Below, piece after piece: positions 5,393-24,863 of a stretch of DNA of 58,438 bases. The notes under the pieces are model-generated. The model was not told the DNA's origin, searched no databases, and saw only the letters and a list, made by a program, of their open reading frames with translations. The position numbers and the translations under genes are program-made. Each line of letters opens with the position of its first letter. Within the stretch, counting starts at the first letter, position 1. This DNA comes from a virus, in the IMG/VR virus record IMGVR_UViG_3300034031_000030, positions 1 to 58,438 of that record. One strand, 5' to 3'.

Positions 5393-5393
5393 T

Positions 5394-6323: not shown

Positions 6324-6360
6324 CAAAAGCGTACGGTCGAATTCGACCGTACGCTTTTGC
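6323..6360. terminator. Class I palindromic element; candidate bidirectional intrinsic terminator
   Basis: Perfect 38-bp palindrome GCAAAAGCGTACGGTCGAATTCGACCGTACGCTTTTGC lying between convergent genes. Confidence 0.65.
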
Positions 6361-6363
6361 TTT

Positions 6364-6423
6364 CCGGCAAGTAGCGGCAAGTTACCGGCAGAAATACCGG
6401 CAATTCCGGCAATTATTGCCAAA
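6364..6423. repeat. Phased array of five or six CCGGCA(A/G) heptamers at about 10-11 bp spacing
   Basis: Copies start at 6364, 6375 (CGGCAAG), 6385, 6397 and 6406, with a partial copy at 6417. The reverse complement TTGCCGG shares the TGCCG core with the iterons at 25811 and 37636. Confidence 0.8.
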
Positions 6424-6449
6424 GAGTGACTCAAAACTGCAGGAGTTGC

Positions 6450-6986
6450 TCAATCACACCAGCTGCGCGTTTCCCAGCACCCCGGCTTCTGATCGCAGTC
6501 GGCGTGTGGGCAGGCGAGGACACACGCAGCTCGATGCGCAGCGTAGTGAACCTTGAACTCTTCAGGATTATGGCTACCATGGCCGTGATCCATGGATTTG
6601 CAGAATTCGATAAGCCGATCGATGTCAGCGTTGGCCTGTTCTTGGACATCGCTTTCCGGCTGGCGCGTCTTCAGGGCGACGAGCGCTGTCGCAGTTTGGT
6701 CCCACTGCCCGAGAATGATGCGCATGGCCAGTTCCGTGTCGTCGCGCAGCGCACGCGCGGCGGCCTTGGTTTCGACCTTCCCGAAAACGCTGTCTCCCAG
6801 CCGGTCGAGGACTTTGAGCGCCTTGCCAACGCGGTGATCCACCAGGCGTGTCGGCTCGACATTCAGCGCAGCGAGCCTTTCCCTGAAGCGCTCCGCTACA
6901 GCCGGGCTCATCCCGGACTCACGCGCCGCATCAAGAATGGCATCGACGTTGACGACGACAGTGTTGGAGTGCATAAGAAATTCCAT
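6450..6986 (-). CDS. Hypothetical protein with a C-terminal His/Cys cluster
   Basis: The minus-strand ORF has helical-protein-like composition and ends with HGHGSH...ACPHADCDQKPGC. A mirror ORF on the plus strand (6426..6989) cannot be excluded. Confidence 0.45.
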   Translation of the reverse strand: MEFLMHSNTVVVNVDAILDAARESGMSPAVAERFRERLAALNVEPTRLVDHRVGKALKVLDRLGDSVFGKVETKAAARALRDDTELAMRIILGQWDQTATALVALKTRQPESDVQEQANADIDRLIEFCKSMDHGHGSHNPEEFKVHYAAHRAACVLACPHADCDQKPGCWETRSWCD

Positions 6987-7061
6987 TGAACCAATAACAA
7001 AAGCAGGTTCAATAACGCCGGTCCAATAGAATCGGCCCTGCGCTGCTACACTTGGCGAAAA

Positions 7062-8240
7062 TTGGACGGGGCTGCACTGCTACCAACAGCCAGCCCCCGA
7101 TCAACTCTGTTACGGAGAGCTGACGTGGATAATTTAACCCTGCAGGCAGCCCACGGCCATAGTTTGCTGCCCGATAATCAGCTGGCGCTGCCTGATTTTC
7201 CTCATCTGGAGCTGGTGCAGCCGGGCGACTCCGGGAAGCGCACTTACAGCGATTACACCCTGTTACCGACGGATCATCATCCCGTCGCGTTTTATCTGGC
7301 CAGTCTGGCCAAAGGCTCTCACCGAACGATGCTCACCGCGCTGGAGCAGATCGCGGCGATCATCACGCAAGGCTCGATGTCGGCGATGCAATTTCCCTGG
7401 GGCAACCTGCGCGCGCCGCACGTTATGCGCGTGCGCGGCATCATCGTCGAGCGTTATGCTCCATCGACCGCCAAGCGGATGATAAGCGCGCTTAAAGGAG
7501 TGCTGAAAGCCGCTTGGCGTCTCAAGCTAATGCCGAACAAGGCATATTTGCGCGCAATCGATATCCCTCCGGTCCGTGGCCAGAGTGTCATGCGCGGCCG
7601 TGCGCTCACCGTGAAAGAGATCGAGGCGCTATTTACTGCTTGTGCACATCTTCCCGAGGTGGAACAGGGCAGGGGAGTCAGCGCAAAGGGAGCTGCTATC
7701 CTCGCGCACGCAGCGCGCATCCACAGCGCGCGAGACACCGCGCTTCTGGCAGTGCTGGTGGGTGTTGGCCAGCGAAGGCGCGAAGCCGTTCACCTAATGC
7801 TCGATGACTACGACCGGGAAAGTGGCTCCATCACCACGGAGCGGGGCAAAGGAAATGTTTCACGAATTGGTTACGCCGGCGCCGGAGTCCGGGCCGCGCT
7901 CGATGCCTGGCTCGAATTGCGCGGAACAGAGCCGGGGCCGCTGTTTCTGCCGCTTACGCGCTCGGGGCGCATTCTCTGGCGCGCGATGAATGACCAGGCC
8001 GTGATGGACATCCTCATCAAGCGCGCGCGCGAAGCCGGGCTCTCGGATCGCGTGTCGCCCCACGATCTTCGCCGCACCTTCGCCACCAACCTCCAGATCG
8101 AGGGCGTGGACATGGCCACCATCTCCCGGATGATGGGACACAAGAACATTGCGACAACGATGCGCTACGACTTGCGCGATGAGACAGCGAAAAAGAAGGC
8201 TGCAGAAACGCTGCGTATTCCTCTCCGAGCAGCTTCCTAA
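7062..8240 (+). CDS. int: Tyrosine site-specific recombinase / integrase (XerC/D-like with SAM-like N-domain)
   Basis: The C-terminal catalytic region has HDLRRTFATN and GHKNIATTMRYD (His-x-x-Arg and catalytic Tyr context). The exact start is uncertain (TTG at 7062). Confidence 0.9.
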   Translation: MDGAALLPTASPRSTLLRRADVDNLTLQAAHGHSLLPDNQLALPDFPHLELVQPGDSGKRTYSDYTLLPTDHHPVAFYLASLAKGSHRTMLTALEQIAAIITQGSMSAMQFPWGNLRAPHVMRVRGIIVERYAPSTAKRMISALKGVLKAAWRLKLMPNKAYLRAIDIPPVRGQSVMRGRALTVKEIEALFTACAHLPEVEQGRGVSAKGAAILAHAARIHSARDTALLAVLVGVGQRRREAVHLMLDDYDRESGSITTERGKGNVSRIGYAGAGVRAALDAWLELRGTEPGPLFLPLTRSGRILWRAMNDQAVMDILIKRAREAGLSDRVSPHDLRRTFATNLQIEGVDMATISRMMGHKNIATTMRYDLRDETAKKKAAETLRIPLRAAS

Positions 8241-8244
8241 CATT

Positions 8245-8733
8245 ATGGCCACCAAGACTTTTTACGAACTTCTCGAAATCTCTCCGTCAGCTTCCCAGGA
8301 CGAAATCAAGGAAAGCTATCGTTTTCTGACAGCCGCATTTCACCCCGACAAGCATACCGAAGCAAACAGGCAGCGGGCCGAATCGATAATGAAGTCCTTG
8401 AACGAAGCCTACTCCGTCCTTTCCGACGCTGATAAGCGGCGCGTGTATGATGCAAGCCAGAAGACTTCCACTCAATCCAGTGATCCATTGTCGAACCTAT
8501 ACCGAACGGATTTTCCTGATTCGAAGGTAGATGCGAATGAAATGCTCGACGTTGAGGGAACGACCCTACAGGTTCGGGGCAGCGTGTATTACGCTGCGTG
8601 CCGCCTGGTGCTCAACAACCAGATAGTCGCTGCCACGAAGCACATTTACGACCACGTACCCGGCATACGGCTCGTGGAAGCGAGAGATGTGGTCCATGCC
8701 ATTCAAGAGGAAATACGGAAGAAGAAACGATGA
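8245..8733 (+). CDS. J-domain (DnaJ-like) protein
   Basis: FYELLEISPSASQDEIKESYRFLTAAFHPDKH...NEAYSVLSDADKRRVYD contains the HPD tripeptide. The C-terminal tail IVAATKHIYDHVPGIRLVEARDVVHAI resembles the L7/L12 C-terminal motif (weak). Confidence 0.85.
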   Translation: MATKTFYELLEISPSASQDEIKESYRFLTAAFHPDKHTEANRQRAESIMKSLNEAYSVLSDADKRRVYDASQKTSTQSSDPLSNLYRTDFPDSKVDANEMLDVEGTTLQVRGSVYYAACRLVLNNQIVAATKHIYDHVPGIRLVEARDVVHAIQEEIRKKKR

Positions 8734-8745
8734 ACCTGGCTCACA
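8731..8745. repeat. Class II palindrome, degenerate copy (TGAACCTGGCTCACA) overlapping the J-domain gene stop codon
   Basis: One mismatch to the TGAACCTGGTTCACA core. Confidence 0.6.
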
Positions 8746-8762
8746 AAATCCCGCTATATTTT

Positions 8763-8792
8763 TTTACAGAAATTTGTGAAATCGAATATAAT
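8763..8792 (+). promoter_or_regulatory. Sigma70-like promoter candidate (TTTACA-N18-TATAAT)
   Basis: The hexamers were read directly. It lies about 40 nt upstream of the 8833 start. The host sigma specificity is unknown. Confidence 0.4.
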
Positions 8793-8832
8793 GCCAGTAC
8801 CGAATCCAGCAAACAGTTATTGAGGAATTCCG

Positions 8833-9564
8833 ATGCCCGAGATGCAGCCCCTACTTTTTCCTGAAGTCCCCCAGCCCGAAGAGCTGATCGATGCTCTTTA
8901 CGACGACGCCGAGTTTCGAGAGTGCGCTATCCAGGCCGCGCGCGACGGCGAGGTGGATGGCTACAACGACCTGATCGGCGGATTCCGCCGCAAGAGCCAT
9001 CGCGGCAGCCGGGCTGAAGAGCAAACGCTGCAGTACCTTGGACAGCGTTTGACGCCGATTGGCTTTGAGTGGGAAGAAGTGACCAACCAGGCACGCTTTC
9101 TTTGCGCGGATCGCTTTGGCAACCCGGTGCGTCTCATCCATTGCCGCGGTGAAATGCTTCTTGGAGTCGATGATAAGCCGTTTTTTCGCATCGGCAAAAA
9201 AGGGGAGCGTACCGAAGAACTGGTCGATGAAAACCAGAGCCAGTTGGAACTGTTTCAACATCTGGCCACCACGGTCGGAACGCTGCAGGAGCCGATCGAG
9301 GATCTCGTTTATAACGTATGGCTGATCGTCGATGCCAACGTTAAAGGCCAGATTTCTATTTACCTGGCTCACGCCACGGAACTGCACAGCAATTGGCGGC
9401 AGGGTGGGGCAGACAAGTACAAGATGAATTTGATTTGCCCGCACGTCCGTCTCCTCTGGGCAGGCTCGCTGCTTGAGCAGAAACCGAAGGTCGATGATCG
9501 ACCGGAAGCTGCACCGACCGAAGAGCAATTCCTGGAAGAACGTTCCGAAGAATCGGCTGCTTAA
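8833..9564 (+). CDS. Hypothetical acidic protein, the upstream partner of the HTH-ImmA gene
   Basis: GAGGA RBS then ATG. No recognisable motif. Confidence 0.55.
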   Translation: MPEMQPLLFPEVPQPEELIDALYDDAEFRECAIQAARDGEVDGYNDLIGGFRRKSHRGSRAEEQTLQYLGQRLTPIGFEWEEVTNQARFLCADRFGNPVRLIHCRGEMLLGVDDKPFFRIGKKGERTEELVDENQSQLELFQHLATTVGTLQEPIEDLVYNVWLIVDANVKGQISIYLAHATELHSNWRQGGADKYKMNLICPHVRLLWAGSLLEQKPKVDDRPEAAPTEEQFLEERSEESAA

Positions 9565-9659
9565 ATGTAGCGGCTTCTCAAAAACGATTGCTCAAAGGCA
9601 TCGGCTGCGAAACAGCGAGTGCCTGAACACGATTTCTATCCCATGCCAAGAAAGGCGCT

Positions 9660-10844
9660 ATGAGCGTAATTTCTGACCGACAACGCAAAAAGGGTTCTCC
9701 GCGCCATTTTTCGCCAACGCGGTTGACTGTGGCGCGTGAGCGGCGCGGCCTGAACAAGAAGACTCTGGCCGATCTTGTGGGCCTGACGCCAGACGCTATC
9801 ACGAAATTTGAGGCCGATCAGTGCCAACCGCTGCCCGAAACACTGCAGCGCTTTAGTTTTGCGCTGCAGTTTCCGCTCGGCTGGTTCAGCGCCAGCGAGA
9901 TCGATTTGCTCGACCCGAAGAGTCTGAGCTTCCGCTCCCGGAGGTCGATGACAGCGGAGATCCGGGGCAAGGCAACGCGGGCAGGGGATATCGCCGTCAG
10001 TGTCATCACGCCCGAGCTGCACCGGCGCTTCGTTCTGCCCGATCCCGCGGTTCCTGACTTGTCCGACTTCGGACCGGAGCACGCCGCTGAGTTATTGCGC
10101 CGCGAGTGGAAGCTGGGAGCCGGTCCCATCGAAAACATGGTTCACCTGCTCGAAGCTAAAGGCGTTCATACCTACTGGATGCGCGAAGAATCTCCGTTGC
10201 TTAATGCCTGGTCGATGTGGCACGGAGAGCGGCCCTTCGTGATGCTCAACATCTTCAACAACGCCGGCTGCCGGGCTCGCTTCGACGCCGCGCATGAACT
10301 CGCACATCTCGTGCTACACCGCGACTCTGTTGTGGAAGGTTTGCAGATGGAAAACGAGGCGAATCTCTTTGCAGCTGCTTTTCTTCTTCCTGAAGATCAG
10401 TTCCGCTATGAATGCCCGAAATACCCGATCCTGCACGCCTTCTATCCACTTAAAGGCCGCTGGGGCGTTTCGATCCAGGCGATGATTATGCGCTGCAAGT
10501 CGCTGGGTATCTTCAGCGATTGGGACACGCGCCGCGCGTTTCAGGAAATCACCTCCCGTGGCTGGAAGAAAGCAGAGCCAAAAGAACTGGCGATCAAGCG
10601 CGAAGAATCCCGTTTGCAAAAAATGATTGCGACCAGGCTCGAAGCGAAAAACATCAATGCTTCAGGACTGGCCAAAGAGCTTCACATTACTTCTGCCGAT
10701 TTGCTCGACCAAATGCCGTTTCTCGAACCATACGTTGAGCCGCAGCAAAAAGAAGTGACCAAAAGCGAAGGCAGTGAAGATCATGCAATCCAGCAGACTG
10801 AGGAGAAGCGTTCAAAGGCCACCCATTTGCGTCTACTTGCCTGA
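9660..10844 (+). CDS. Fused XRE-family HTH / ImmA-IrrE (M78, COG2856) zinc metallopeptidase
   Basis: N-terminal HTH (LTVARERRGLNKKTLADLVGLTPDAITKFE). HEXXH motif in FDAAHELAHLVLH. An additional ~110-aa C-terminal region follows. Confidence 0.85.
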   Translation: MSVISDRQRKKGSPRHFSPTRLTVARERRGLNKKTLADLVGLTPDAITKFEADQCQPLPETLQRFSFALQFPLGWFSASEIDLLDPKSLSFRSRRSMTAEIRGKATRAGDIAVSVITPELHRRFVLPDPAVPDLSDFGPEHAAELLRREWKLGAGPIENMVHLLEAKGVHTYWMREESPLLNAWSMWHGERPFVMLNIFNNAGCRARFDAAHELAHLVLHRDSVVEGLQMENEANLFAAAFLLPEDQFRYECPKYPILHAFYPLKGRWGVSIQAMIMRCKSLGIFSDWDTRRAFQEITSRGWKKAEPKELAIKREESRLQKMIATRLEAKNINASGLAKELHITSADLLDQMPFLEPYVEPQQKEVTKSEGSEDHAIQQTEEKRSKATHLRLLA

Positions 10845-10874
10845 GAGATGTCTGGTTTAATTGAACGCGAAAAA

Positions 10875-10915
10875 GAGTACGGTCGAATTCGACTCATCGA
10901 CGATCGACCGTACTC
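10875..10915. terminator. Class I palindromic element with an expanded loop
   Basis: GAGTACGGTCGAATTCGA-ctcatcgacga-TCGACCGTACTC, flanked by an A-run and followed by a T-run. Confidence 0.55.
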
Positions 10916-10971
10916 CCGCAGTTTTTTATTCCCGCAGTTCTGAGTCGATTTTTCTTAAATATCGATGATTG

Positions 10972-11002
10972 TGTTACATACGATAATACACATTATGTAA
11001 CA
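10972..11002. promoter_or_regulatory. Inverted repeat TGTTACATA-N13-TATGTAACA in an AT-rich intergenic region (operator candidate)
   Basis: 9-bp perfect arms read directly, upstream of the 11192 gene. Confidence 0.35.
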
Positions 11003-11191
11003 AACAACTGTAATTCTGGCAATAAGTTAGCGATTAAATAAAAAGGGAGCCAGCCCCCTGGGCCGACCCCCTCGCAACTGAGGTGCAAGCATACCACTCC
11101 CCGTTTCACAGCAGGGACAATAATTTAGCAAATAGATGGAATGGCTTCGGCTATATCTATAGTTATGACACTAACTTAGCAAGGAGTTGCA

Positions 11192-11635
11192 ATGTCGGAT
11201 TGGAAAGAACGATTGAACGGATTTATGCAAGAGACGGAACAGGCCAAGGCTGCTAAGCAGGAGAAAGTTGCAGCAGCCGAACGCTCCATAGCCGTATTTG
11301 TCGATCGGACCGCTGTTCCCGCTTTGGCAGCCTTCAGGGACGAACTGGAACGACATGGACGCGAATCAGTGGTCTTCGCAGAGCGTGGTCGGCCACGCAT
11401 CGAGGTCAAGAAAGATGGAAGGCTGGAGTTTGAGGCGAGAATTGAGTGCTATGTGGTCGATACAGACGCTCGGATCAGCCTCAAAGTGAGCCGGGGCAAA
11501 AGCCCTGGCTATAACGAGAAAACCACAGACCTTCGGGAGCATAATTCTCAGGGCGGCTCGCTGGAAGAATTCCCCATCGATGACGTGCTCAATGCGCTTC
11601 TCGAAGCCTACATCTCGACGGCGCCCAAGCAATAA
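11192..11635 (+). CDS. Hypothetical protein (moron-like, with its own upstream AT-rich region and terminator)
   Basis: AAGGAG RBS 6 nt before the ATG. Followed by a class I hairpin. Confidence 0.6.
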   Translation: MSDWKERLNGFMQETEQAKAAKQEKVAAAERSIAVFVDRTAVPALAAFRDELERHGRESVVFAERGRPRIEVKKDGRLEFEARIECYVVDTDARISLKVSRGKSPGYNEKTTDLREHNSQGGSLEEFPIDDVLNALLEAYISTAPKQ

Positions 11636-11640
11636 CACCT

Positions 11641-11675
11641 AAAAGAGTACGGTCGAATCCGACCGTACTCTTTTT
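11641..11675. terminator. Class I palindromic element; bidirectional terminator candidate
   Basis: AAAAGAGTACGGTCGAATCCGACCGTACTCTTTTT lies between convergent genes. Confidence 0.7.
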
Positions 11676-11711
11676 ATTTCGGTTTCGGGATGACGAAAGG
11701 TGCGTTAGCGA

Positions 11712-11903
11712 TTAAATGACTTTGGGCGTGATCCAGCCCGGCTGCTGTCGCACCTCAAGGATTTGCTCGAATGTAGGATCTTCCATATTCCACCCGCGCT
11801 CTTCAAAGTAGGCGCGTGTGAACGCGTCGCGTGCTTTGACTACAACAGCGATATCGGGAGTGGACTGAGCAATGAGCGCGTCTCTGATTTGTTCTGTTGT
11901 CAT
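11712..11903 (-). CDS. Hypothetical small protein
   Basis: ATG at 11903 is preceded by AGGAA. Last gene of the minus-strand small-gene operon. Confidence 0.5.
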   Translation of the reverse strand: MTTEQIRDALIAQSTPDIAVVVKARDAFTRAYFEERGWNMEDPTFEQILEVRQQPGWITPKVI

Positions 11904-11946
11904 CGATATTCCTGTTTCGCCGGTTTTTATTCCAAAATGGCGATTT

Positions 11947-12177
11947 TTATTCACCTTCTGGCACGACCGTCACGAAAACCTCCAAGTAGTTTCCATTGGG
12001 GCCTATGACGACCGCGTACTCAACATTTCGGACTCGATACGATCGCCGGGCGTAAGACGTTGTTGTGACGAAGTGCCTCTCTGGTATCGTCACCGTCTCG
12101 CAGATTCGCGGCACGGCGTCTGAATGGACACGAATTAGCGTGTCCCCTAATTCGTTGACGAAATAAATCGAGTTCAC
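11947..12177 (-). CDS. Hypothetical small protein
   Basis: GTG at 12177 overlaps the upstream stop (GTGA). The upstream extension of the ORF looks non-coding (Arg/His/Cys-rich). Confidence 0.45.
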   Translation of the reverse strand: MNSIYFVNELGDTLIRVHSDAVPRICETVTIPERHFVTTTSYARRSYRVRNVEYAVVIGPNGNYLEVFVTVVPEGE

Positions 12178-12386
12178 TGGCCACTCCCGTCGGTTCGGTT
12201 GCGGAGCTGCTTCATCACCCGATCGACGTAGCGATGGGCGAGAAGTGTCCCGCCGCCCTGGATGCCGATGATGCACAGAAAAACGATGATGCCCGCAGCC
12301 GCACCGTTCTCGATGACATTTAGCACGCCGGCTAAGACTGCAGAGAACACGGTGCCTATGCCCGCTTGTCTGTATAGTGAGTTCAT
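12174..12386 (-). CDS. Small membrane protein
   Basis: ATGA coupling. Hydrophobic stretches GIGTVFSAVLAGVL and AAAGIIVFLCIIGI. Confidence 0.55.
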   Translation of the reverse strand: MNSLYRQAGIGTVFSAVLAGVLNVIENGAAAGIIVFLCIIGIQGGGTLLAHRYVDRVMKQLRNRTDGSGQ

Positions 12387-12583
12387 CGTCCATCCTTTGG
12401 TGGAATTGGGCTGAAGAAATTTCCGATCAAAACGAGTGCGGGCCACATCAAAGCAGCAGTAACGAATTGCCACCATCCCCATCCATGCACATAAACGGCA
12501 TACAGGTTTATGAGGGTGAAGAAACATACCGCGTGAACCTGAACGTCATTGGTTTGAAGCATGGCTCGCAGCTTGTCTCTCAT
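12383..12583 (-). CDS. Small membrane protein
   Basis: ATGA coupling on both sides. Hydrophobic stretches VCFFTLINLYAVYV and FVTAALMWPALVLIGNFF. Confidence 0.55.
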   Translation of the reverse strand: MRDKLRAMLQTNDVQVHAVCFFTLINLYAVYVHGWGWWQFVTAALMWPALVLIGNFFSPIPPKDGR

Positions 12584-12816
12584 GCAGGTGTCCGCTTCGC
12601 AACGACCTTCGTAGGTGTCAGCGTCATTATCGTATCGTCGTCGCGCGTTGGGTCTTGGATCTCGCCGCTTTCGATCCGTTCGGCCAATAACGTTCTCACG
12701 ATATTTTCTTCGTCGAGCCACAGCTCGACACCGTGGCTGCGCAGCACAGCTTTCACGGCGCCGTAATCCATCCTGGCCACTCTGGCCTTCATATCTACAA
12801 ATTCACCGTTCGACAT
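12580..12816 (-). CDS. Hypothetical small protein
   Basis: GGAGA RBS before the ATG at 12816. Confidence 0.5.
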   Translation of the reverse strand: MSNGEFVDMKARVARMDYGAVKAVLRSHGVELWLDEENIVRTLLAERIESGEIQDPTRDDDTIMTLTPTKVVAKRTPA

Positions 12817-12833
12817 TAGATTTCTCCATCGGG

Positions 12834-13034
12834 CTATAAGGTGTCTTCTGCATTCCCTTTTCTCAGCAACAGCATGATGGCGTGAAGAGAGTGCGCAATG
12901 CTTATTTGTGCGGCGGCACAAAGCTGTGGAGAGTTGTGACTATAATTGTCAGAATTTTTTCTGATCCGATGATTTAAGTCTTTCATCGCTTCATCCGCCT
13001 TCTCTACAGCTTCCTTTGTTCCGATGTACGGCAT
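12834..13034 (-). CDS. Hypothetical small protein
   Basis: GGGGAGAG RBS before the ATG at 13034. Confidence 0.5.
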   Translation of the reverse strand: MPYIGTKEAVEKADEAMKDLNHRIRKNSDNYSHNSPQLCAAAQISIAHSLHAIMLLLRKGNAEDTL

Positions 13035-13046
13035 CTCAACTCTCCC

Positions 13047-13457
13047 CTAGTCGCCGCCGGCGACTTTTTCCTCGATGGAAATTCCCAGGAAACTCTCGGG
13101 CCCACGCAACGCGCTTTGTGCTGGCCACTGATAGGAGCCGCCAAGTTTCTTCTCGATCTCGCCGATCATGTAATCCCAACCAGGCCGCTCGTGCTTCAAT
13201 TTCCAGAGTGCGAGAGAAATCACCTGCCGGTCTGATTCGTCGAGAACCACACCAGTGTGAGCAGCATGGCTCCAGGTGGCCGTTGCCAAGTAATCGAATG
13301 TCCGTGGAACAACATCGACTTGAACCTCGATGCCGTCGGCGACACCAGATTCCTGCAGCATTGGCATTAAGGCGGCGGCTGCCGCTGCCTCTTGGCCACG
13401 GAGGAGCACGTCGGCGATTGAAACGGAAGTGGAGATTGAGGATTTGACATCGATCAT
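13047..13457 (-). CDS. Hypothetical protein, first gene of the minus-strand small-gene operon
   Basis: ORF with plausible composition. A divergent control region lies upstream. Confidence 0.6.
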   Translation of the reverse strand: MIDVKSSISTSVSIADVLLRGQEAAAAAALMPMLQESGVADGIEVQVDVVPRTFDYLATATWSHAAHTGVVLDESDRQVISLALWKLKHERPGWDYMIGEIEKKLGGSYQWPAQSALRGPESFLGISIEEKVAGGD

Positions 13458-13563
13458 GGGTGCCTTCTGTTGTTGATGAATAACATTACTTGGGTACGTA
13501 CTTGATGTATGTACTTGATTGTTTGCTGTTTTAGAAAAGCCCCTTTTCGTTTTAGAACGATCC

Positions 13564-13601
13564 TTTTTCGATTCAGAAAAGGGGCTTGCTGAATCGAAAA
13601 A
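13564..13601. promoter_or_regulatory. 13-bp-stem hairpin TTTTTCGATTCAG / CTGAATCGAAAAA nested with alternative pairings
   Basis: Read directly. Its loop AAAAGGGGCTT can instead pair with 13536-13547 or 13598-13609. Confidence 0.5.
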
Positions 13602-13669
13602 GCCCGTTTCGATTTAAATCACATTGAATTCTGCGAAAACAACCATTCTCATAGATTTCGATTACCTCG

Positions 13670-13695
13670 AAGTACGGTCGAAATCGACCGCACTT
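13670..13695. terminator. Class I palindromic element
   Basis: AAGTACGGTCGAAATCGACCGCACTT followed by TTTGC. Confidence 0.5.
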
Positions 13696-13728
13696 TTGCT
13701 GCTGCACCAAGATCGTCATAATTGGCTC

Positions 13729-14103
13729 ATGGCTAATTATGGACAGTGCAATAAGTGTGGCGAAAGTAACCCTTATACGGCGGTTATTTGTAAAGGATGC
13801 AATTCGCGTCTTCCATGGGCACAAGCAGCTAAAACCGCACAACAGATCGGGAATGCCCCGACGCGCCCGTTGCCCCCAACACAGCCGACCGCTCCCCTTC
13901 CATCACAACCTCCAGTTTCTGTCCCGTCAATTTTTGCGTCACGCGCTCATAAATCGGAGGAAAGAACGCCCGTTGTCGTTCAGCAAGGAGGCTGTCTTTC
14001 CGGGCTAGGTATGGGTATGGGAGCTGGCGTCGGCTGCTGCTGCCTCGCGCCGATCCTGCTCTTCGTCTCATTCGTCCTTCTTGCAGCTATTGGTGCCCGA
14101 TGA
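13729..14103 (+). CDS. Zinc-ribbon protein with a Pro-rich linker and a C-terminal transmembrane anchor
   Basis: CNKCG...CKGCN. PTRPLPPTQPTAPLPSQPP linker. C-terminal GVGCCCLAPILLFVSFVLLAAIG. Confidence 0.6.
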   Translation: MANYGQCNKCGESNPYTAVICKGCNSRLPWAQAAKTAQQIGNAPTRPLPPTQPTAPLPSQPPVSVPSIFASRAHKSEERTPVVVQQGGCLSGLGMGMGAGVGCCCLAPILLFVSFVLLAAIGAR

Positions 14104-14130
14104 AAGTACGGTCGAAATCGACCGTACTTT
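14103..14130. terminator. Class I palindromic element
   Basis: AAAGTACGGTCGAAATCGACCGTACTTT overlaps the stop codon of 13729..14103, between convergent genes. Confidence 0.65.
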
Positions 14131-14158
14131 CGGTCTGTGCGTCTATTTAGCAGCCACT

Positions 14159-14518
14159 TCATTCACCGCACATTTGATGCAAAATGGTGGCATAGTCACC
14201 TTGGTCCCCACTTGCTGCACCGACAAGCGGCAATAATTGGTTGAGCAGCCTGAGAAGACTTGGCAGCGTTTTGACCGTCATCGGTGGGAGAGCTGTACCA
14301 GCGCCTTTACAAAGAACAAGGTAGTTCGCCCGTCCCACAAGTTCGGGAACCGTGCCGTCTTCCGGTTTGCGTAAGTAAACCTCGATAACCACTCCCATCT
14401 GTGAGCCAAACGTAAAGCTAGGCTTCTCTTCGATTCCCTGAAACTCAACAGCTTGCTTCAGGTTTGTCTTCTTTGTTCGGTAGGCAACTGGAACTTTTTC
14501 GAAATCGTAATAGAGCAT
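14159..14518 (-). CDS. Hypothetical protein, last gene of the maintenance operon
   Basis: ORF lies 19 nt downstream of the rep-like gene. Confidence 0.6.
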   Translation of the reverse strand: MLYYDFEKVPVAYRTKKTNLKQAVEFQGIEEKPSFTFGSQMGVVIEVYLRKPEDGTVPELVGRANYLVLCKGAGTALPPMTVKTLPSLLRLLNQLLPLVGAASGDQGDYATILHQMCGE

Positions 14519-14537
14519 TCGTCTCCTTTTTATTTTG

Positions 14538-16520
14538 TTAGGCTACGCGTCGTGCTGCACCAGTTTCATTTTCGAGTGCAGCCATTTCTGCAATTCGCTG
14601 GTCGATCGCTGCCGGGTCTTCCTCGTAGGCGATAGCACGCATTTCTTCGCGCGTCTTCTTTTCAACGGCTTCGCTGTCTGGATTGCGACGGACACGATCG
14701 CGCCAGAAGTCATCTGCAGTCATTCGCGCGAGAGCATCGCATTCGTAAGTCTCGCGCTCATCTTCGCTGAGATTAGCGATATACCAGTCACACGCGGTAT
14801 CCATACGCTTTTGATCGAGGCTGATTGCAGCATCTCCCAGGCGTGCTGATTCAGTCTTAGGCTGTGCCTGTTTGCGCTGTAAGGCCTGCTGTGCCGCTTT
14901 TTCCCGTTCTTCCTCTGGTTGGTTCAGGTAAGCCTCTCGCTGCACGTCCGCGACGATTTCTCGTACCCAGGTGTCTGGAGGCTCTTGTTGGTGCAGTATG
15001 CGAGTGATGAGTGCCCCGGCCGGTGTGAGGTTTTTCTCGCTTGGATCACGACGGCGATTGTACTCGTCGCAGTACTCCTGTTTGGATTCTGGCCAGTGGT
15101 GCCAGAAAACCAATTGCCATCGCGCGTTCATCGCATACCCTTCGACGATCTGTTTCATTTTTGCCGACTGGCGCCCGATGCCAAGTCGGCCCAGCCGCGC
15201 ACGGAGCGCCTGGTCAGACAATCCCGCCTCGCTCCAGGTAGCAGCGCGCCGCCGGGCCATTTCTAGTGTGAGAACTTCAGGCGCTAGCTCATAAAGTCGA
15301 GTGGCGAGAAATTCTATTGTCGGTGACGTTTCACCTGGATCACTTGTAATTACCGCAGGCAAGGCGCCTTCGTCTTCTTCATATCGAGGTGGGCGCGGTG
15401 AACGTGGTTCATGTGACGATTGTGGAAAGGGTGGTAGGGTTGCGCTATCAGGCGTGGATACAGATTCATTAGAATCCACAACAACAGCAAGGGGGGCCTG
15501 GTGTTGTTTATGAGAAACTTCGTTTTCTGTACCACTCTTTTGTACAGATGATAATGAGGTCAAATCTACCCCACATACGAGGTCATTTTGACCCTGTATG
15601 TCAGGGATGACTGCCCCCACCCCCTGTAAATCTGCCCCCACCTCCGGTTCTCCAGTTCCTTGAAATACCGGGGCGGGGGAAATTTGACCCCGCCCCCGTT
15701 CTATGGCCCGCCGCACGTCAGATTTTTCGTAATGTTTGCGCCCTGGAATCCACCCGTCTTCGGTTAATTCTTTGATTTTCTGAGCATGACGTTGCTGATA
15801 CTCCTCCAGCAATTCCTGCTCGCGCGCATCACCGAGGGCATTGCCAGAAAGGCGTGCTTCCCAGCGCTCGTTTTGCACCTGGTCGAGCGCTTCCTGATAG
15901 AGCCCCGTCAATGGATCGAGCACTTCGCTAACGACGTGATACCAATTGACGTTATCGCCCTTTTCAGTGTTAAGGTCTGCCGTCCAGATCACACCTTGCT
16001 TCCGGCAGCTCCCCAACTTCTTCTTGTAGGTTTCCCGATGAATGTGCCGCAGCTTTCCTGACCACGGATTGAACATCAAGCCTGGTGGAATTCGGACGTA
16101 AAGCCGATCTTCAAATTTTTTAAATTTGAATTCAAGATCTAACAACAGGTCGCGGTAAGGATGGTTGCGCCAATAAACAATCTGCTGAATGATGTCTGCT
16201 TCGTCATCACCGAAGACTGCCTTTAGCCCCGGCTGGACTTGCATAAAAGGTTCGTTTAGCACCAGGCTATTTTGAGAATTATTGAACTGCCTTTCCCGTG
16301 GATGTGGAATCGGTGTCATGCCGTCCCCTTTGTTCCGATCACTTTGATACTGTTTAAAAAATGGCCGTTCAAGATCCCGTGTAGGGCCACTGAAACTTGG
16401 GGTGCCAACAGAATCAGAAGGGATGCCAGAAATGGCCGGCGTGAGGCCCGACCGCCCATGTTGGAAGAGCGATGCGCAAGCAGCAGCAACGACGCGAAGC
16501 GACGACGCGAAAGAAAACAT
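14538..16520 (-). CDS. Large hypothetical protein; candidate replication initiator by position only
   Basis: A 660-codon ORF downstream of parAB. It has two structured halves joined by a low-complexity linker whose DNA (15555-15700) is dense in short repeats. The start is uncertain (alternative Met at residue 67). Confidence 0.4.
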   Translation of the reverse strand: MFSFASSLRVVAAACASLFQHGRSGLTPAISGIPSDSVGTPSFSGPTRDLERPFFKQYQSDRNKGDGMTPIPHPRERQFNNSQNSLVLNEPFMQVQPGLKAVFGDDEADIIQQIVYWRNHPYRDLLLDLEFKFKKFEDRLYVRIPPGLMFNPWSGKLRHIHRETYKKKLGSCRKQGVIWTADLNTEKGDNVNWYHVVSEVLDPLTGLYQEALDQVQNERWEARLSGNALGDAREQELLEEYQQRHAQKIKELTEDGWIPGRKHYEKSDVRRAIERGRGQISPAPVFQGTGEPEVGADLQGVGAVIPDIQGQNDLVCGVDLTSLSSVQKSGTENEVSHKQHQAPLAVVVDSNESVSTPDSATLPPFPQSSHEPRSPRPPRYEEDEGALPAVITSDPGETSPTIEFLATRLYELAPEVLTLEMARRRAATWSEAGLSDQALRARLGRLGIGRQSAKMKQIVEGYAMNARWQLVFWHHWPESKQEYCDEYNRRRDPSEKNLTPAGALITRILHQQEPPDTWVREIVADVQREAYLNQPEEEREKAAQQALQRKQAQPKTESARLGDAAISLDQKRMDTACDWYIANLSEDERETYECDALARMTADDFWRDRVRRNPDSEAVEKKTREEMRAIAYEEDPAAIDQRIAEMAALENETGAARRVA

Positions 16521-16711
16521 GGCCTATGGAATACAGGTTTGCCCTTGTTGAATTGTAAATTTATTGCTGAAATCATATTGAATTCCCTGCTGGATTCGAT
16601 AAAAAGCCGCGCAACCGCCTTCTCGAAAATTGTGGATGCGTGGCTTTTTATTTTATCGACCAATTTCCCTTTGTACAGACACCCTTTGAAAATGCAAAGT
16701 ACTTAACAGTT

Positions 16712-17986
16712 TTAAAGTGCTTTCATCGCTGATGTCCAGCTTTTAATGTGCGACTGCATTTGCAACTTCAGAGCTTCTCGTTCCGTTTCGGTCATGGACT
16801 TAGCCGAACTTGTAACGAGACTGCAAACGTAATTTACGTTCGGGTCGATCGCTTTCAGTTGCTTGGCAGCCTTCACGAAAACCTTACTTCCACCCACACC
16901 TTTCGTGCCTGACCCGGAAGCCCCCCCCGCACGTTTCTTCTGGCCCTGTGTATCTCCACCGCCCGTGTCGCTCGATGTGCCGCTGGCAGGTGCAGCGGAT
17001 TCGGATGTTCCCTCCCCGGTCGCCGGCACCAGCGAGAGATGAGTCCCCTGCCCTGCTGCAACGGCTGAACGGTTCGCATCGATCGCGGCCTGGCTGCTGG
17101 CAGCCTGCGCGGCCTTCTGAGATTCCTGAGCTACAACATCATCGAGGGTCGGCTGATTTTGCCGCAACTTATCGCGGTAGAACAAAGCGTGCTTCATCGA
17201 CTCGTTGCCGCTCCAGCCTTCTTGGACGATTTGATGGAAGAACTTTCGTTGTTCATCCGGGTAATCTTTCAGTTCCAGCAGGGCACGCCCGTGCCGTTCG
17301 TTCAGGCTCGGGGGATTGCCGGCACCGTCAGACTCCATTTCTTCGCGGATGTATTCGGGCAGTTCGAGCAAATCCACGAGCTGCTTTAGGCGCCGGTAGC
17401 TCAGGCCGCCGATACGCTTGGAAACCTCTTGCCATGTCGGTGGTTTTTCTCCGATGTCACGGGCAACTTTCTTCAGCTCGTTGTAAAGCGCTAAAAACGC
17501 TCGCGCGCGGTCAAGAATCGGCGGATCGACGCGGTTCTCGTTTTCTTCGAGCGCGAGAATGCGCATTTCCAAATCGGACAATGGCTCGACAAGGGTAAGT
17601 AATTTCCCGTGGTAATTCTCTGGATTTTGACGATTGCTACCAGCGTTGCCACCAGCGAGAACCGTGTACTTTCGCCGGTGGCCAAAGGCGCACTGATAAC
17701 GCCCGGCGAGTTCCGGGTCTTTGGCCACCGCATCCTCGGCGTACGGTCGAACCTTCGCCGGCTCTTGCTGGCCATGCTCATTAAACGAAGCGACCATGCT
17801 TTCAATGTCGAACGGATTGTAGTTCGTCCGGTATTGATACGGATTGTCATCAATCCGGGCCACGTCAATCCACACGGCTTCAACTGCAGGAGTTGGCGAA
17901 GGTGGGGTTCTAAGGGGAAACAATTTATTGAGCCGCGACTCACGCTCGGCTGCTGGCGTGATGGACTTCACTGCTTTTAATTTCAT
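16712..17986 (-). CDS. parB: ParB-family partition protein
   Basis: ParB/Srx N-domain with the GHRR motif (YQCAFGHRRKYTVLAG). ATGA overlap with parA. Ser/Gly-rich low-complexity C-terminal half. Confidence 0.85.
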   Translation of the reverse strand: MKLKAVKSITPAAERESRLNKLFPLRTPPSPTPAVEAVWIDVARIDDNPYQYRTNYNPFDIESMVASFNEHGQQEPAKVRPYAEDAVAKDPELAGRYQCAFGHRRKYTVLAGGNAGSNRQNPENYHGKLLTLVEPLSDLEMRILALEENENRVDPPILDRARAFLALYNELKKVARDIGEKPPTWQEVSKRIGGLSYRRLKQLVDLLELPEYIREEMESDGAGNPPSLNERHGRALLELKDYPDEQRKFFHQIVQEGWSGNESMKHALFYRDKLRQNQPTLDDVVAQESQKAAQAASSQAAIDANRSAVAAGQGTHLSLVPATGEGTSESAAPASGTSSDTGGGDTQGQKKRAGGASGSGTKGVGGSKVFVKAAKQLKAIDPNVNYVCSLVTSSAKSMTETEREALKLQMQSHIKSWTSAMKAL

Positions 17987-18627
17987 GCGTCACTCCAACC
18001 ATTCACCAGTTCACGCGCCAGGGTGCGATACGCGCGCGCCGGATGGATGCGTGGTGCAGTCTGCAGAATCGTGCGTCCTTCGGCGGCGGCTGACTCGATC
18101 CCTGAATGTCGTTTGATGGTGACACTGAGAACGCGGTCGCCCAGGCTTTCGCGCAAGCGCTGCTCGATGGTAAACGCGTCTGGGTTGCCGGTATCGAAAA
18201 GCGTGAGTAGCAAATGCCAGGAGAGATTTGGGTTTCCGCCTTTGCGCTCGGGATCGCGCGCGAAGTCGAGTGTCTTCATCAATCGCTCCAGGCCGATGAG
18301 TGAGGGCGCGGCGGGCATTGTTGGCACCAGCGCGACATCGGCCAGGGAGAGCGCTTTTGCTACATCCGGCCCCAGTGCCGGCGGGCAGTCAATCAGTACA
18401 AAGTCTGCCTTGCGGTCGATGGTGCGTTTGAGAGTGCCGGTGGTGGCATCGGCAAAGACGAGGTTCTCGCTGCTCATTTCTTCCGAAAACAAAAGCGTCA
18501 GGTCCCGTTGAGGATCGACGCCAATGAGCTGCACTCGCTTACCCAGTTCCACCAGCGCGGAGCCAAGAGTGACGGTTGTAGTGGTTTTCCCTACTCCACC
18601 CTTTTCGTTGAGGACAGCGACAATCAT
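17983..18627 (-). CDS. parA: ParA/Soj-type partition ATPase
   Basis: Deviant Walker A in MIVAVLNEKGGVGKTTTTVTLG. 214 aa. Confidence 0.93.
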   Translation of the reverse strand: MIVAVLNEKGGVGKTTTTVTLGSALVELGKRVQLIGVDPQRDLTLLFSEEMSSENLVFADATTGTLKRTIDRKADFVLIDCPPALGPDVAKALSLADVALVPTMPAAPSLIGLERLMKTLDFARDPERKGGNPNLSWHLLLTLFDTGNPDAFTIEQRLRESLGDRVLSVTIKRHSGIESAAAEGRTILQTAPRIHPARAYRTLARELVNGWSDA

Positions 18628-18842
18628 GCGCTCACCTCGTCGAGCGATATCCCAGCGCGTTTGGCGAGTTGCTCGAAATTCGCACGCGTCGCGTGTGTGC
18701 GTGGCATCCGCGCCTGCGCTTCACATTTTGTGACCGTAGAAAGCGAGCTGCAAAGCTGGCGCGCGAATTCCTCCTGCGTCAAGCCTAAAGCGGTGCGAAC
18801 TTCTTTCATGAAATTTCGAGGCGAATCTACAGACTTTTTCAT
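18624..18842 (-). CDS. XRE-family HTH regulator, first gene of the parAB operon
   Basis: LGLTQEEFARQLCSSLSTVTKCE helix-turn-helix. ATGA overlap with parA. Confidence 0.8.
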   Translation of the reverse strand: MKKSVDSPRNFMKEVRTALGLTQEEFARQLCSSLSTVTKCEAQARMPRTHATRANFEQLAKRAGISLDEVSA

Positions 18843-18849
18843 GACCGCA

Positions 18850-18855
18850 ATTATA
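18850..18855 (-). promoter_or_regulatory. TATAAT box 7 nt upstream of the HTH gene ATG (possible leaderless transcript)
   Basis: The minus strand reads TATAATtgcggtcATG. The palindrome TACTAGTA (18874-18881) lies in the -35 area. Confidence 0.35.
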
Positions 18856-18900
18856 CATGGCGCCCGAAATAAATACTAGTAAAAAAACTTGTCTGGTTAC

Positions 18901-18929
18901 TTGAATGACCCTAACGAAAGTAGTAAGAT
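18901..18929 (+). promoter_or_regulatory. Sigma70-like promoter candidate TTGAAT-N17-TAAGAT for the early plus-strand operon
   Basis: Hexamers read directly. The -10 is overlapped by the inverted repeat AGTAGTAA-GA-TTACTACT (18919-18936). Confidence 0.4.
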
Positions 18930-19017
18930 TACTACTAGAGCAAAAGAGAAGAGTCGCCCCGACCCTGCAAAAGTAGGACGACTCTTCAATCCCCAAAGCC
19001 TCTAAAGGAATTTGGTT

Positions 19018-19419
19018 ATGCAGCATCTTACCATTGTGATTCGAGCCAATGAAGCGCTACTGGAGCGCATCTTGGACGGGCGTGCAGAAAGCGCCCTGAC
19101 TTACGACGACGCGCGAACCGTAGCCGCTACCTATGCCGCGGTCGATGCGCTGACCGGCGAAAAGGTCAGCTCTTCCAGCCGGGCTTACAAGGTTGACTAT
19201 CGACAATGCTGGAATCGCCTGCGTGCCGCTCAAACGCTCGATGTGCGCCGCCGGTGGGACGATGAGGAAATGCGCCGCACGCACGAGTTCGTCGCCACAG
19301 CACCCGCCCGTAAGCTCACCTATGCACAGCAGCTCGAAGCGCAGTACGGCAAAGCCCCGCTTCAACGCCATCGCCGGCGCAACGCCGGATACAGCCGACC
19401 ACGCCACGCTTGTTGTTAG
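19018..19419 (+). CDS. Hypothetical early protein
   Basis: AAGGA RBS then ATG. First gene of the early operon. Confidence 0.55.
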   Translation: MQHLTIVIRANEALLERILDGRAESALTYDDARTVAATYAAVDALTGEKVSSSSRAYKVDYRQCWNRLRAAQTLDVRRRWDDEEMRRTHEFVATAPARKLTYAQQLEAQYGKAPLQRHRRRNAGYSRPRHACC

Positions 19420-19435
19420 TAACCATCACAATTAA

Positions 19436-21465: not shown

Positions 21466-21998
21466 GAATTTCAGACAAGCCGATTTCCCTTTCTTTTGAG
21501 GAAGCGAACCAGTTGAATCTTGCAATCCGCAACGCGATCCGCAATGCGGCAGACCACACCGGCATCAACGGCAATCCCGTGAGCAAGGAGGAACTGATCG
21601 ACCGCGACATGGCTTCCATCACCGAACTGATGGAAGTGCAGGATCTGCTTTCGCGCGCCGCCCTGGATGCGGGCCGCAGTGCTGGCCAGACCATCATCGA
21701 CGTAATTTCCGAAGCCGAGCATTTAATGCACGTCGCTGAAAAACTCAAGCCGCGCACTTTGCCCGACGGTCGGGAGCTGCACGTCCTTCCCCTACTCTTT
21801 GGCCGCGGTCGTTTGGGCATTACAAAACCGGTCGGAATGACGGACTCGATTGACGATGACAGCTTCGGTGATGTGTGGGAATTCCCAACGCTCGATGCGG
21901 CGCTTGCTGCACAGCGCTACTGGAATCCACAGGAGCAAATAGAGCCGGTTGGCTGGGATCGGCACCCGAAGAGCGGACGCCGGGCTGCAAAGGACTGA
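21462..21998 (+). CDS. Hypothetical protein
   Basis: ATGA coupling. Its stop TGA is the first triplet of a class II palindrome. Confidence 0.6.
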   Translation: MRISDKPISLSFEEANQLNLAIRNAIRNAADHTGINGNPVSKEELIDRDMASITELMEVQDLLSRAALDAGRSAGQTIIDVISEAEHLMHVAEKLKPRTLPDGRELHVLPLLFGRGRLGITKPVGMTDSIDDDSFGDVWEFPTLDAALAAQRYWNPQEQIEPVGWDRHPKSGRRAAKD

Positions 21999-24080: not shown

Positions 24081-24863
24081 CTACCCTGCCAATGTTTCGA
24101 TGTAGCGCGTGGCCAGCAGCCGGGCGACGGTCGCCGCTTCCCAAGCTCCGCCGCGCTTGGTTTTATGACCATTGGCCGTCAAATGCGCGGCGATACGCCG
24201 CAGAGAAAGCCCGCCTTCGTGCAGCTCGCGCACGAGGTTGACGGTTTTCATTTCGTCTTCATCCTCGACGAGCATCTTCACGCCGTCGGCACCTTCGATG
24301 GTTTTGTATCCAAGCGGTGTTGTCCCCAGTCGCTCCTTGCGCGCTTTCTTCTGGCCAAGCGCGGCGGCGGTGCGTTCGGCGATGATGCCGCGCTCCCATT
24401 CCGCGATGGTAGCGATGAAGGTGCGCATCATGCGGCCTGTCGCCGTGCTGGTGTCGATGTGTTCCGCGATCGTCGCCCATTCGCCGCCGGTGTCTGCTAC
24501 CAGCGCATCGAGCGTGTACAGATCGGGCACAGAGCGCGTGAAACGGTCCAGCTTGAGCGCGAGAAGAACGCGGCCGGGTTGCATCGCGCGAAGGGCTCGA
24601 CGAAGAGCCGGGCGCTCTAAATTCTTGGCACTGACACCGGCATCTTCAAATACCTCGAGTAACTCCCAGCCATTCGCCGCACATTGCGCCTGGATGCGCG
24701 CGCGCTGGTTATCAAGGGATAGACCGGAATCCGCCTGTTCGTCGCTAGAAACGCGAATATAGCCCAAACAAAGCGATACTTTGACCGCCTGTTTCGGTCG
24801 TTTTTTTGTGCTTATTTTTTTGTGCGTTTTTGCGCCGTTTTTGGGTGCATATTTCGTGAGCAT
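24081..24863 (-). CDS. Small serine recombinase (resolvase/invertase family)
   Basis: GYIRVSSDEQADSGLSLDNQ (catalytic Ser region), with a C-terminal HTH-like LSLRRIAAHLTANGHKTKRGG. The annotated ATG gives an unusual ~30-aa Lys-rich leader; TTG just before GYIRV is an alternative start. Confidence 0.9.
   Translation of the reverse strand: MLTKYAPKNGAKTHKKISTKKRPKQAVKVSLCLGYIRVSSDEQADSGLSLDNQRARIQAQCAANGWELLEVFEDAGVSAKNLERPALRRALRAMQPGRVLLALKLDRFTRSVPDLYTLDALVADTGGEWATIAEHIDTSTATGRMMRTFIATIAEWERGIIAERTAAALGQKKARKERLGTTPLGYKTIEGADGVKMLVEDEDEMKTVNLVRELHEGGLSLRRIAAHLTANGHKTKRGGAWEAATVARLLATRYIETLAG

Follow-up and report, generated by a model that had tools for sequence, protein, structure and literature searches.

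A putative plasmid-type replication and partition cassette in a complete temperate tailed phage

Phage-plasmids, ParABS partition systems and replication origins lying inside initiator genes are all already known. Most known phage-plasmids come from Enterobacteria, Firmicutes and Actinobacteria; coliphage P1 replicates on the host replisome with DnaK and DnaJ and uses a tyrosine recombinase for dimer resolution, the same two chaperones remodel both P1 RepA and the lambda O-P-DnaB complex, and plasmids of the RepA_N type also place their origin inside rep. Phage-plasmids combine partition with replication genes, and their recombinases may serve dimer resolution or switching between states; in other bacteria, poor cataloguing of replication and partition functions limits their detection (PMC7969092). 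In mycobacteria, a repA-plus-parABS cassette is sufficient for an extrachromosomal prophage (PMC7157519). Here we analyze a viral contig of 58,438 nucleotides (nt), IMG/VR record IMGVR_UViG_3300034031_000030, the whole of which we refer to as the window, and within it a block of leftward genes at positions 14159-18842. As an earlier note on this DNA had proposed, the block very probably constitutes a plasmid-type maintenance module, namely a portable replicon and partition cassette with a dedicated initiator, a reading based on the initiator families matched, a cluster of iterons, synteny with a second phage and contexts in metagenome-assembled genomes (MAGs). Taken as a whole, the data are best explained by a cassette residing in a complete temperate phage that persists as a low-copy phage-plasmid, an explanation in which we place moderate confidence. 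What is new is the initiator family, absent from Pfam, with about 30 representatives and a middle domain widespread in one phylum, as well as its tight association with ParAB, its probable host lineage and its coexistence with integrases.

Genes and candidate origin of the cassette

The block is made up of the following features, in the order of transcription.

18624-18842, minus strand: XRE-type helix-turn-helix (HTH) protein, 72 amino acids (aa), first gene of the leftward unit
17983-18627, minus strand: ParA, a small (214 aa) partition ATPase with a deviant Walker A motif, KGGVGKTT at residues 9-16, and no N-terminal HTH
16712-17986, minus strand: putative ParB, 424 aa, with an N-terminal ParB/Srx-type domain containing FGHRR, a ParB HTH and a long low-complexity C-terminal half
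16320-16711, minus strand: spacer of 392 nt between parB and the initiator gene, with a palindrome, a promoter-like site, a hairpin with a T-run and tandem 13-mers
14538-16520, minus strand: 660-codon open reading frame (ORF) as listed by program, likely true start at Met68
14538-16319, minus strand: putative replication initiator, 593 aa from Met68 (gene call P0001, with a Shine-Dalgarno sequence)
14159-14518, minus strand: 119-aa ORF, 19 nt downstream of the initiator gene

The HTH, ParA and ParB genes are translationally coupled, with overlaps of 4 nt between the HTH stop and the ParA start and again between ParA and ParB. The HTH protein (HTH_31 1.2e-8, HTH_3 2.1e-8) is probably the autoregulator of the cassette, or possibly the phage repressor. 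ParA matches AAA_31 (9e-25), CbiA (1.5e-15) and phrog_164 (6e-37), and aligns over its full length (1-203/203) with the partition-ATPase model NF041546, at 102 bits against a cut-off of 180 bits. The 424-aa protein matches TIGR00180 (1.6e-13; 50.8 bits against a cut-off of 58.45), HTH_ParB (1.9e-6) and phrog_4715 (1e-8), more weakly ParB_N (6e-3), and is about 27% identical to plasmid RepB/ParB, identifying it at the sequence level as a divergent ParB. It has three relatives among 5.8 billion proteins; ParB scans of IMG/VR gave no match, nor did blastn of the whole cassette against phages. A ParA with a deviant Walker A motif, with a protein combining a ParB N-terminal domain and HTH encoded directly after parA, corresponds to the arrangement of a type I ParABS system.

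The earlier note had described five minus-strand ORFs forming one tightly coupled operon, among them a 72-aa HTH protein, a ParA with a KGGVGKTT Walker A motif, a ParB with a GHRR motif and an uncharacterized 660-codon gene. All five ORFs are present, and the first three bear out their assignments by motif and profile. The tight coupling holds for HTH-ParA-ParB and stops there: parB is followed by a gap of 191 nt up to the first ATG of the large ORF, or 392 nt up to its likely true start, and the hairpin and promoter-like site in this spacer argue that the block consists of two units rather than one tight operon, with the HTH-parA-parB unit, the spacer, and then the predicted initiator gene and the 119-aa ORF. 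The 660-codon ORF exists as described; its start is most likely Met68, giving 593 aa, as the public gene call begins at this ATG (position 16319), AAGGGGA lies 4 nt upstream of it, and the alignment with the nearest homolog shows conservation from residue 2 of the Met68-started protein. Regarding Rep families, against which the note had suggested comparing this protein, it matches phrog_6493, annotated as "DnaD-like helicase loader" (3e-9), and no other PHROG, and it has no match in NCBIfam or Pfam.

The assignment of the large protein as the initiator of a rare family without a Pfam entry is well supported by its relatives. An exhaustive HMMER search of 1.84 billion representatives returned 31 matches, with conservation mainly over residues 17-200; the relatives that were looked up are all metagenomic, mostly on contigs of 20-50 kb. 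Among 30 relatives, 26 match phrog_6493 (best 2e-42), 19 match phrog_11233 and 15 phrog_428, both annotated as "replication initiation protein", and between three and seven match the "replication initiation O-like" PHROGs (678, 9773, 391). The window protein has no Pfam match even at E 0.1, DnaD/DnaB_2 and RepA_N included, and none of these 30 has a Pfam match. By sequence, the window protein also found no match in the PDB, in INPHARED phages or PLSDB plasmids (tblastn), or as a query against IMG/VR, and scans with the initiator alignment, twice over metagenome contigs and once over genome contigs, detected no encoded relative.

The initiator is laid out as a winged helix and helical hairpin (about residues 17-200), a linker (about 200-330), a conserved helical middle domain (about 330-470) and a poorly modelled helical C-terminal tail. 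The model of the N-terminal domain (predicted local distance difference test, pLDDT, 87; predicted template modelling score, pTM, 0.78) has a winged helix that leads into a long helical hairpin. Foldseek related it to generic winged-helix regulators; the top ten of the structural aligner included 5wtn_A, the N-terminal region of Geobacillus primosome DnaB (Z 7.4, 83 residues aligned, root-mean-square deviation 3.7), and 4pta_D, a staphylococcal plasmid RepA (Z 6.8, 115 aligned, 4.9), both scores falling in the aligner's noise band of Z below 8. The middle domain is confidently folded and helical, with pLDDT >90 over 140 residues; for the middle and C-terminal part no usable neighbor was found by Foldseek or by VIA, whose list was filled by low-confidence terminal helices, so that the VIA result hardly extends to residues 1-140 of that model.

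A relative of the initiator (P0007, 25% identical) is carried by G001 (an IMG/VR contig of 30.9 kb, loci L074/L075), a fragment of a second tailed phage that encodes tape measure and tail proteins, an integrase of the tyrosine type, a sigma/Q-like regulator and a HerA-like ATPase. Its cassette lies on one strand with overlapping genes, in the order HTH_3, two small ORFs, ParA, ParB-domain protein, 119-aa ORF, initiator and a 196-aa ORF that is DnaB_N-like. The HTH proteins of the two phages are 43% identical and the ParA proteins 38% (E 7e-41); matches at the sequence level are confined to HTH, ParA and initiator, ParB is common at the domain level, and the two genomes have nothing besides the cassette in common. 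Conservation of the HTH-ParA-ParB-initiator order in an otherwise unrelated phage gives good support to the portability of the cassette. The 119-aa ORF of the window is dissimilar to both the 119-aa and the 196-aa ORF flanking rep in G001, has no Pfam, PHROG or NCBIfam match and gave no usable lead in the ESM Atlas. As a separate observation, the HerA-like ATPase of G001 has a C-terminal winged-helix domain and is encoded between integrase and cassette (L074 2690-4432, minus strand); it may be a defence or accessory gene.

The part of the initiator gene that encodes the linker contains two elements of a candidate origin.

15558-15691, minus strand: candidate origin iterons, three to four GGGNCAAWWTGACC-type units, and GGTGGGGGCAG twice at a 21-nt period
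15500-15557, minus strand: AT-rich stretch, a candidate DNA-unwinding element, directly 3' of the iterons on the coding strand and within the gene

The block 15500-15599 has a GC fraction of 0.39, compared with 0.52-0.63 in the adjoining blocks. Taken alone, the iteron pattern of the window is post hoc, and it was cross-checked against G001, where P0007 shows the same layout at the same place (21504-21730). The motif CAAWWTGACC occurs exactly three times in the 30.9 kb of G001, versus 0.24 expected, all three within 117 nt of the rep linker, and about 100 nt of GC 0.39-0.41 follow the iterons. These repeats lie in two reading frames, encoding QNDPH, ANMTP and GNLTE, so that conservation acts on the DNA and not on the peptide. 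When a weight matrix was derived from the four sites of G001 alone, 4 of its 15 top window hits (both strands) fell in the 170-nt linker, corresponding to three independent sites, since one palindromic site accounts for two of the hits, one per strand (P about 1e-7 to 1e-5). In at least seven further relatives the same linker contains exact repeated peptides of 5-8 aa, which vary by lineage, and three relatives from MAGs (L130, L133 and L120) have direct repeats of 9-18 nt just before the middle domain. Iterons with an AT-rich stretch inside the initiator coding sequence of both phages (15500-15691 in the window), and a motif that recurs in different frames in the relative, thus point to an origin located within the initiator's own gene, as in lambda O.

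Beyond these elements, the spacer and the flanks of the cassette contain several candidate control sites.

16684-16717, minus strand: imperfect 34-nt palindrome over the parB stop, in or next to the spacer
16650-16677, minus strand: promoter-like site in the spacer
16588-16662, minus strand: hairpin with a T-run in the spacer
16485-16510, minus strand: tandem pair of 13-mers in the spacer
18843-19011, no strand: divergent control region separating the HTH-parAB unit from the early genes that run rightward
18919-18936, no strand: perfect 18-bp palindrome AGTAGTAA-GA-TTACTACT, unique, with one match in the genome and none expected
14106-14127, no strand: palindromic hairpin of a dispersed type (class I), located where convergent genes meet at the 3' end of the cassette, one of about 17 copies in the genome

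The spacer elements are candidates for a terminator, a rep promoter and/or parS, and the 18-bp palindrome is a candidate operator. The hairpin at 14106-14127 is probably a bidirectional terminator. The 22-bp class I palindrome to which it belongs (GTACGGTCGAA/TTCGACCGTAC) has about 17 sites dispersed over 6331-48922, mostly intergenic (for example 6331, 11647, 14106, 22490, 22524, 24039, 37018, 37595, 45672 and 48901); the extensions of its stem show covariation, and in three copies the loop is 19 nt long. Exact matches were found in 3 of 185,579 species genomes, two Abditibacteriaceae MAGs and one Gastranaerophilales MAG. The carrier MAGs have one or two copies each and have the hairpin alone in common, so that it is not a host-wide repeat. 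A role as parS is likewise unsupported: the palindrome is absent from the related contigs L001 and G001, and nothing links it to ParB. It is a possible clue to the host.

Relatives in bacterial genomes and the probable host lineage

We searched 201 genomes of the phylum to which the palindrome-bearing Abditibacteriaceae MAG belongs (the phylum of G002). TerL relatives in this phylum are 41-47% identical to that of the window over the full length, compared with 34-38% for the best isolated phages, and one MAG contig with a TerL relative also has portal and capsid relatives. Abditibacteriota/Armatimonadota-type bacteria are the probable host lineage. Contig G070:C17, with homologs of TerL and of the tyrosine recombinase described below, carries at 9527-9604 of locus L106 a tRNA called by ARAGORN, with anticodon TTA (ochre-suppressor type).

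The initiator profile matches 29 of the 201 genomes, mostly via the middle domain. This helical domain (profile about 205-390, motifs RWQLxxWP and PPxxW) is common in the phylum, for example at L084, L086, L087 and L089, in proteins of 400-750 aa whose N-termini do not match the winged-helix profile. A constant middle domain combined with varying N-termini suggests that the origin-binding domain is exchanged on a conserved module that would recruit the replisome.

We examined 20 MAG contexts of initiator relatives. A ParA homolog lies within about 6 kb of rep in 10 of them, several with ParB too, and five or six show the same-strand order ParA, ParB, initiator; by estimate, a random 20-kb window holds a ParA-like gene a few percent of the time. 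The ParA of G111:C8 is 44% identical to that of the window. All ten ParA-linked contexts are on contigs of at most 101 kb, and the small cassette-bearing contigs have no terminal repeats. ParA is absent around two relatives on contigs of at least 700 kb and around three that match in the winged helix only, whose contigs measure 262 kb to 4.86 Mb.

The elements concerned are diverse. On a 46-kb contig (G058:C22; L133, locus 4841-19430), the initiator relative and ParA stand among a TrwC relaxase-helicase (1.9e-77), a DUF3854 protein of 1,426 aa and DUF499; the replicon type is the same, and the element is either a plasmid, conjugative or mobilisable, or resembles an integrative and conjugative element. 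Other contigs have DUF3854 or a GmrSD nuclease near the cassette, and some have PolA, a PAS histidine kinase or phosphoketolase. On a 101-kb contig (G053:C54; L130, locus 7534-14352), a full-length DNA polymerase I gene comes after those for ParA, ParB, an initiator relative of 394 aa and an ORF of 285 aa, all in one orientation; the contig could be a chromid or a megaplasmid, or the cassette could here be in chromosomal use. The recurrence of ParA-ParB-initiator synteny across unrelated elements argues for a vertical-maintenance replicon rather than a lytic module.

Maintenance of the phage genome

The contig represents a complete temperate tailed phage. It is rated 100% complete by CheckV and carries an exact direct terminal repeat of 127 bp (bases 1-127 equal 58312-58438, plus strand; IMG/VR class DTR), leaving 58,311 bp of unique genome. 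It encodes TerS, TerL, a portal, a protease-like protein, a major capsid protein and a virion protein, as well as a lysogeny regulator, a single-chain HTH-M78 protein of the ImmA/IrrE type. The sole portal gene is an ORF of 2,236 aa (29976-36686, plus strand), in which the portal is fused to 2'-5' RNA ligase-like (2H), NUDIX and ADP-ribosyltransferase domains. The terminal repeat was rejected as proof of a plasmid state because 127 nt is a typical length for an assembler overlap. The earlier note had recognized no DNA polymerase, helicase or primase, and its statement stands: PHROG scans of about 45 phage ORFs revealed none of the three, and six-frame searches of the genome for DnaB_C, DnaB_N, DNA_pol_A, IstB/DnaC, DnaG_N and Prim-Pol were negative, the controls having worked in control genomes. 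Three genes outside the cassette bear on its maintenance.

7062-8240, plus strand: tyrosine recombinase, 392 aa, with a full-length Phage_integrase domain (5.6e-26)
8149-8733, plus strand: J-domain protein, DnaJ domain at residues 38-101 (1.4e-19), directly after the tyrosine recombinase gene
24081-24863, minus strand: short serine recombinase, 260 aa, Resolvase 6.9e-36

The tyrosine recombinase, whose best NCBIfam models are XerC, XerA and XerD, all far below their cut-offs, may be either an integrase or a dimer resolvase. The serine recombinase covers positions 1-50 of the 102 of the Recombinase domain PF07508 and aligns with residues 10-229 of the 542-residue CcrB. It does not have the C-terminal recombinase domain, zinc ribbon and coiled coil of large serine integrases (about 450-600 aa in total), and a class I hairpin follows closely on the end of its gene; the protein is either short by nature or a large serine recombinase that has been truncated. 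In the absence of this integrase apparatus it is the better resolvase candidate of the two, and its sequence mildly favors a role as resolvase or invertase.

In the mechanism that we propose, the winged-helix N-terminal domain would bind the iterons within its own gene, like lambda O at ori-lambda, and the AT-rich DNA beside them would melt. The middle and C-terminal part of the initiator would then recruit the host helicase, primase and polymerase, which we propose because the phage encodes none of these; the J-domain protein possibly brings host DnaK to the initiator, a link to replication suggested by the role of DnaJ and DnaK in P1 and lambda. Theta replication from the intragenic origin would thus be driven by the initiator on the host replisome, ParB would load at a parS, ParA would segregate the copies and the small HTH protein would act as autoregulator. 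The prophage would persist as a low-copy circular episome, that is, a phage-plasmid, with the short serine and/or the tyrosine recombinase resolving multimers. On the episomal state taken by itself, our judgement is evenly balanced.

Several observations weigh against such a phage-plasmid. The episomal state is read from the genes of a lone metagenomic viral contig, and its circular assembly is compatible with a plasmid state and equally with a circularly permuted or terminally redundant virion genome. The structural matches of the N-terminal domain, being in the noise range, corroborate its assignment and are no proof of it; the scores of both ParA and ParB are below the NCBIfam curated cut-offs; and parS is at the stage of candidates, namely the palindrome at 16684-16717, the 13-mers at 16485-16510 and the dispersed class I palindromes. 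Housekeeping genes such as those for PolA and phosphoketolase on cassette contigs indicate that the cassette may also sit in chromids, megaplasmids or integrated elements. An ImmA/IrrE-type regulator together with a tyrosine recombinase is typical of integrating prophages, initiators of the lambda O type with intragenic origins also drive the lytic replication of integrating phages, and both cassette-bearing phages, the window and G001, keep a tyrosine recombinase. In mycobacteriophages parABS stands in place of the integrase and the two do not coexist (PMC7157519), which makes the presence of an integrase and parAB together the unusual point of this genome.

These points bear most directly on the first alternative, an integrating temperate phage in which the tyrosine recombinase integrates the genome, the 593-aa protein is a lytic (theta) initiator like lambda O, and ParAB is accessory, for example positioning replicating genomes, stabilizing a pre-integration or pseudolysogenic circle, or acting in plasmid incompatibility. 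We consider this unlikely, though it is the alternative that survives best. The full-length recombinase domain and the HTH-M78 regulator fit it, as does G001, which has an integrase and whose cassette heads a long same-strand operon reaching the sigma/Q-like regulator, like an early lytic operon; winged-helix-only relatives are also found on large chromosomal contigs without ParAB, one of them near an integrase. The window cassette, in contrast, is transcribed away from the rightward early genes and has its own control region, the ParA-ParB-initiator synteny extends to unrelated elements including the relaxase-bearing plasmid-like contig, and ARAGORN found no tRNA or tRNA-like site in the phage genome that could mark an attP. 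The homolog of the tyrosine recombinase in G070:C17 (46%, E 1e-81), on a 74-kb MAG contig and 4 kb upstream of a 46% TerL, lies in a prophage-like region, a point for this alternative, but amid same-strand genes and not at the edge of the element, and decides nothing.

A facultative dual lifestyle, with integration via the tyrosine recombinase or maintenance as a ParABS-stabilized plasmid depending on the host or on the availability of attB, appears less probable still. It would account for the presence of integrase and cassette together in two unrelated phages, and for the occurrence of cassettes on small plasmid-like contigs as well as on contigs that carry housekeeping genes; against it, no attP/attB pair and no element in both states was found, and two co-occurrences are few. 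That the ParA/ParB-like pair does not serve partition, acting for instance as a ParB-type nuclease or CTPase in defence or anti-defence or as a MinD/Soj-like regulator with incidental linkage to the initiator, is highly improbable: the sub-threshold scores, the high divergence and few relatives of ParB and the lack of a parS found would agree with it, but ParA matches a partition-ATPase model over its full length, ParB contains its N-terminal domain as well as the ParB HTH, translational coupling joins the genes in canonical order and their linkage to the initiator is repeated.

The cassette offers a concrete replicon open to testing, with initiator, mapped candidate origin and ParAB, for a nearly uncultured lineage, and a possible minimal backbone for shuttle vectors in such hosts. 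It adds a new initiator family to profile libraries, and two unrelated phages that each combine a full cassette with an integrase provide a test case for switching between integrated and plasmid states in temperate phages. More tentatively, and we regard this as doubtful, the window may belong to the first recognizable phage-plasmid lineage of Abditibacteriota/Armatimonadota-type hosts, built on an undescribed initiator family that combines a winged helix, an intragenic origin and a novel conserved middle domain, with a cassette common to plasmids, relaxase-bearing elements and tailed phages and with an integrate-or-plasmid lifestyle.

Comparison with known systems

Coliphage P1 (repA/oriR, parA-parB-parS, Cre/lox) resembles the window in being a tailed temperate phage with a dedicated initiator, iteron-binding in P1 and predicted to be so in the window, adjoining ParA and ParB and a tyrosine recombinase. 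The window initiator, however, has no sequence similarity to P1 RepA, ParA is short and without an N-terminal HTH, a separate 72-aa HTH protein being encoded ahead of it, the candidate origin lies inside the initiator gene, and the episomal state is here read from the genes.

The likeness to lambda O and ori-lambda lies in an N-terminal origin-binding domain, predicted in the window, and in iterons with an AT-rich region in the linker-coding part of the initiator's own gene. Some relatives of the window initiator match O-like PHROGs, the window protein itself matching phrog_6493 only. The window initiator is twice the size of O, with an additional conserved middle domain, and is linked to ParAB, which lambda does not have; no P/DnaC-type loader was found in the window (six frames, IstB/DnaC and DnaB-N), the downstream 119-aa ORF being matchless.

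DnaD-like and RepA_N initiators, such as RepA of pSK41/pTZ2162 (4pta) and Geobacillus DnaB (5wtn), may share with the window initiator the fold class of its N-terminal domain, a winged helix and helices, at Z 6.8-7.4 within the noise range, and the PHROG label of the window protein is "DnaD-like helicase loader". They differ from it in their C-terminal parts, which are unrelated, and the window initiator matches neither the RepA_N nor the DnaD/DnaB_2 family of Pfam at E 0.1.

In the cluster A mycobacteriophages RedRock, Miko and Rachaly, which are maintained as plasmids through parABS with or without RepA, the initiators are unrelated to that of the window, parS consists of arrays of 8-bp direct repeats, and parABS replaces the integration cassette, whereas the window has both. 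What these phages and the window have in common is a portable parAB and initiator module in a temperate, siphovirus-type genome (PMC7157519).

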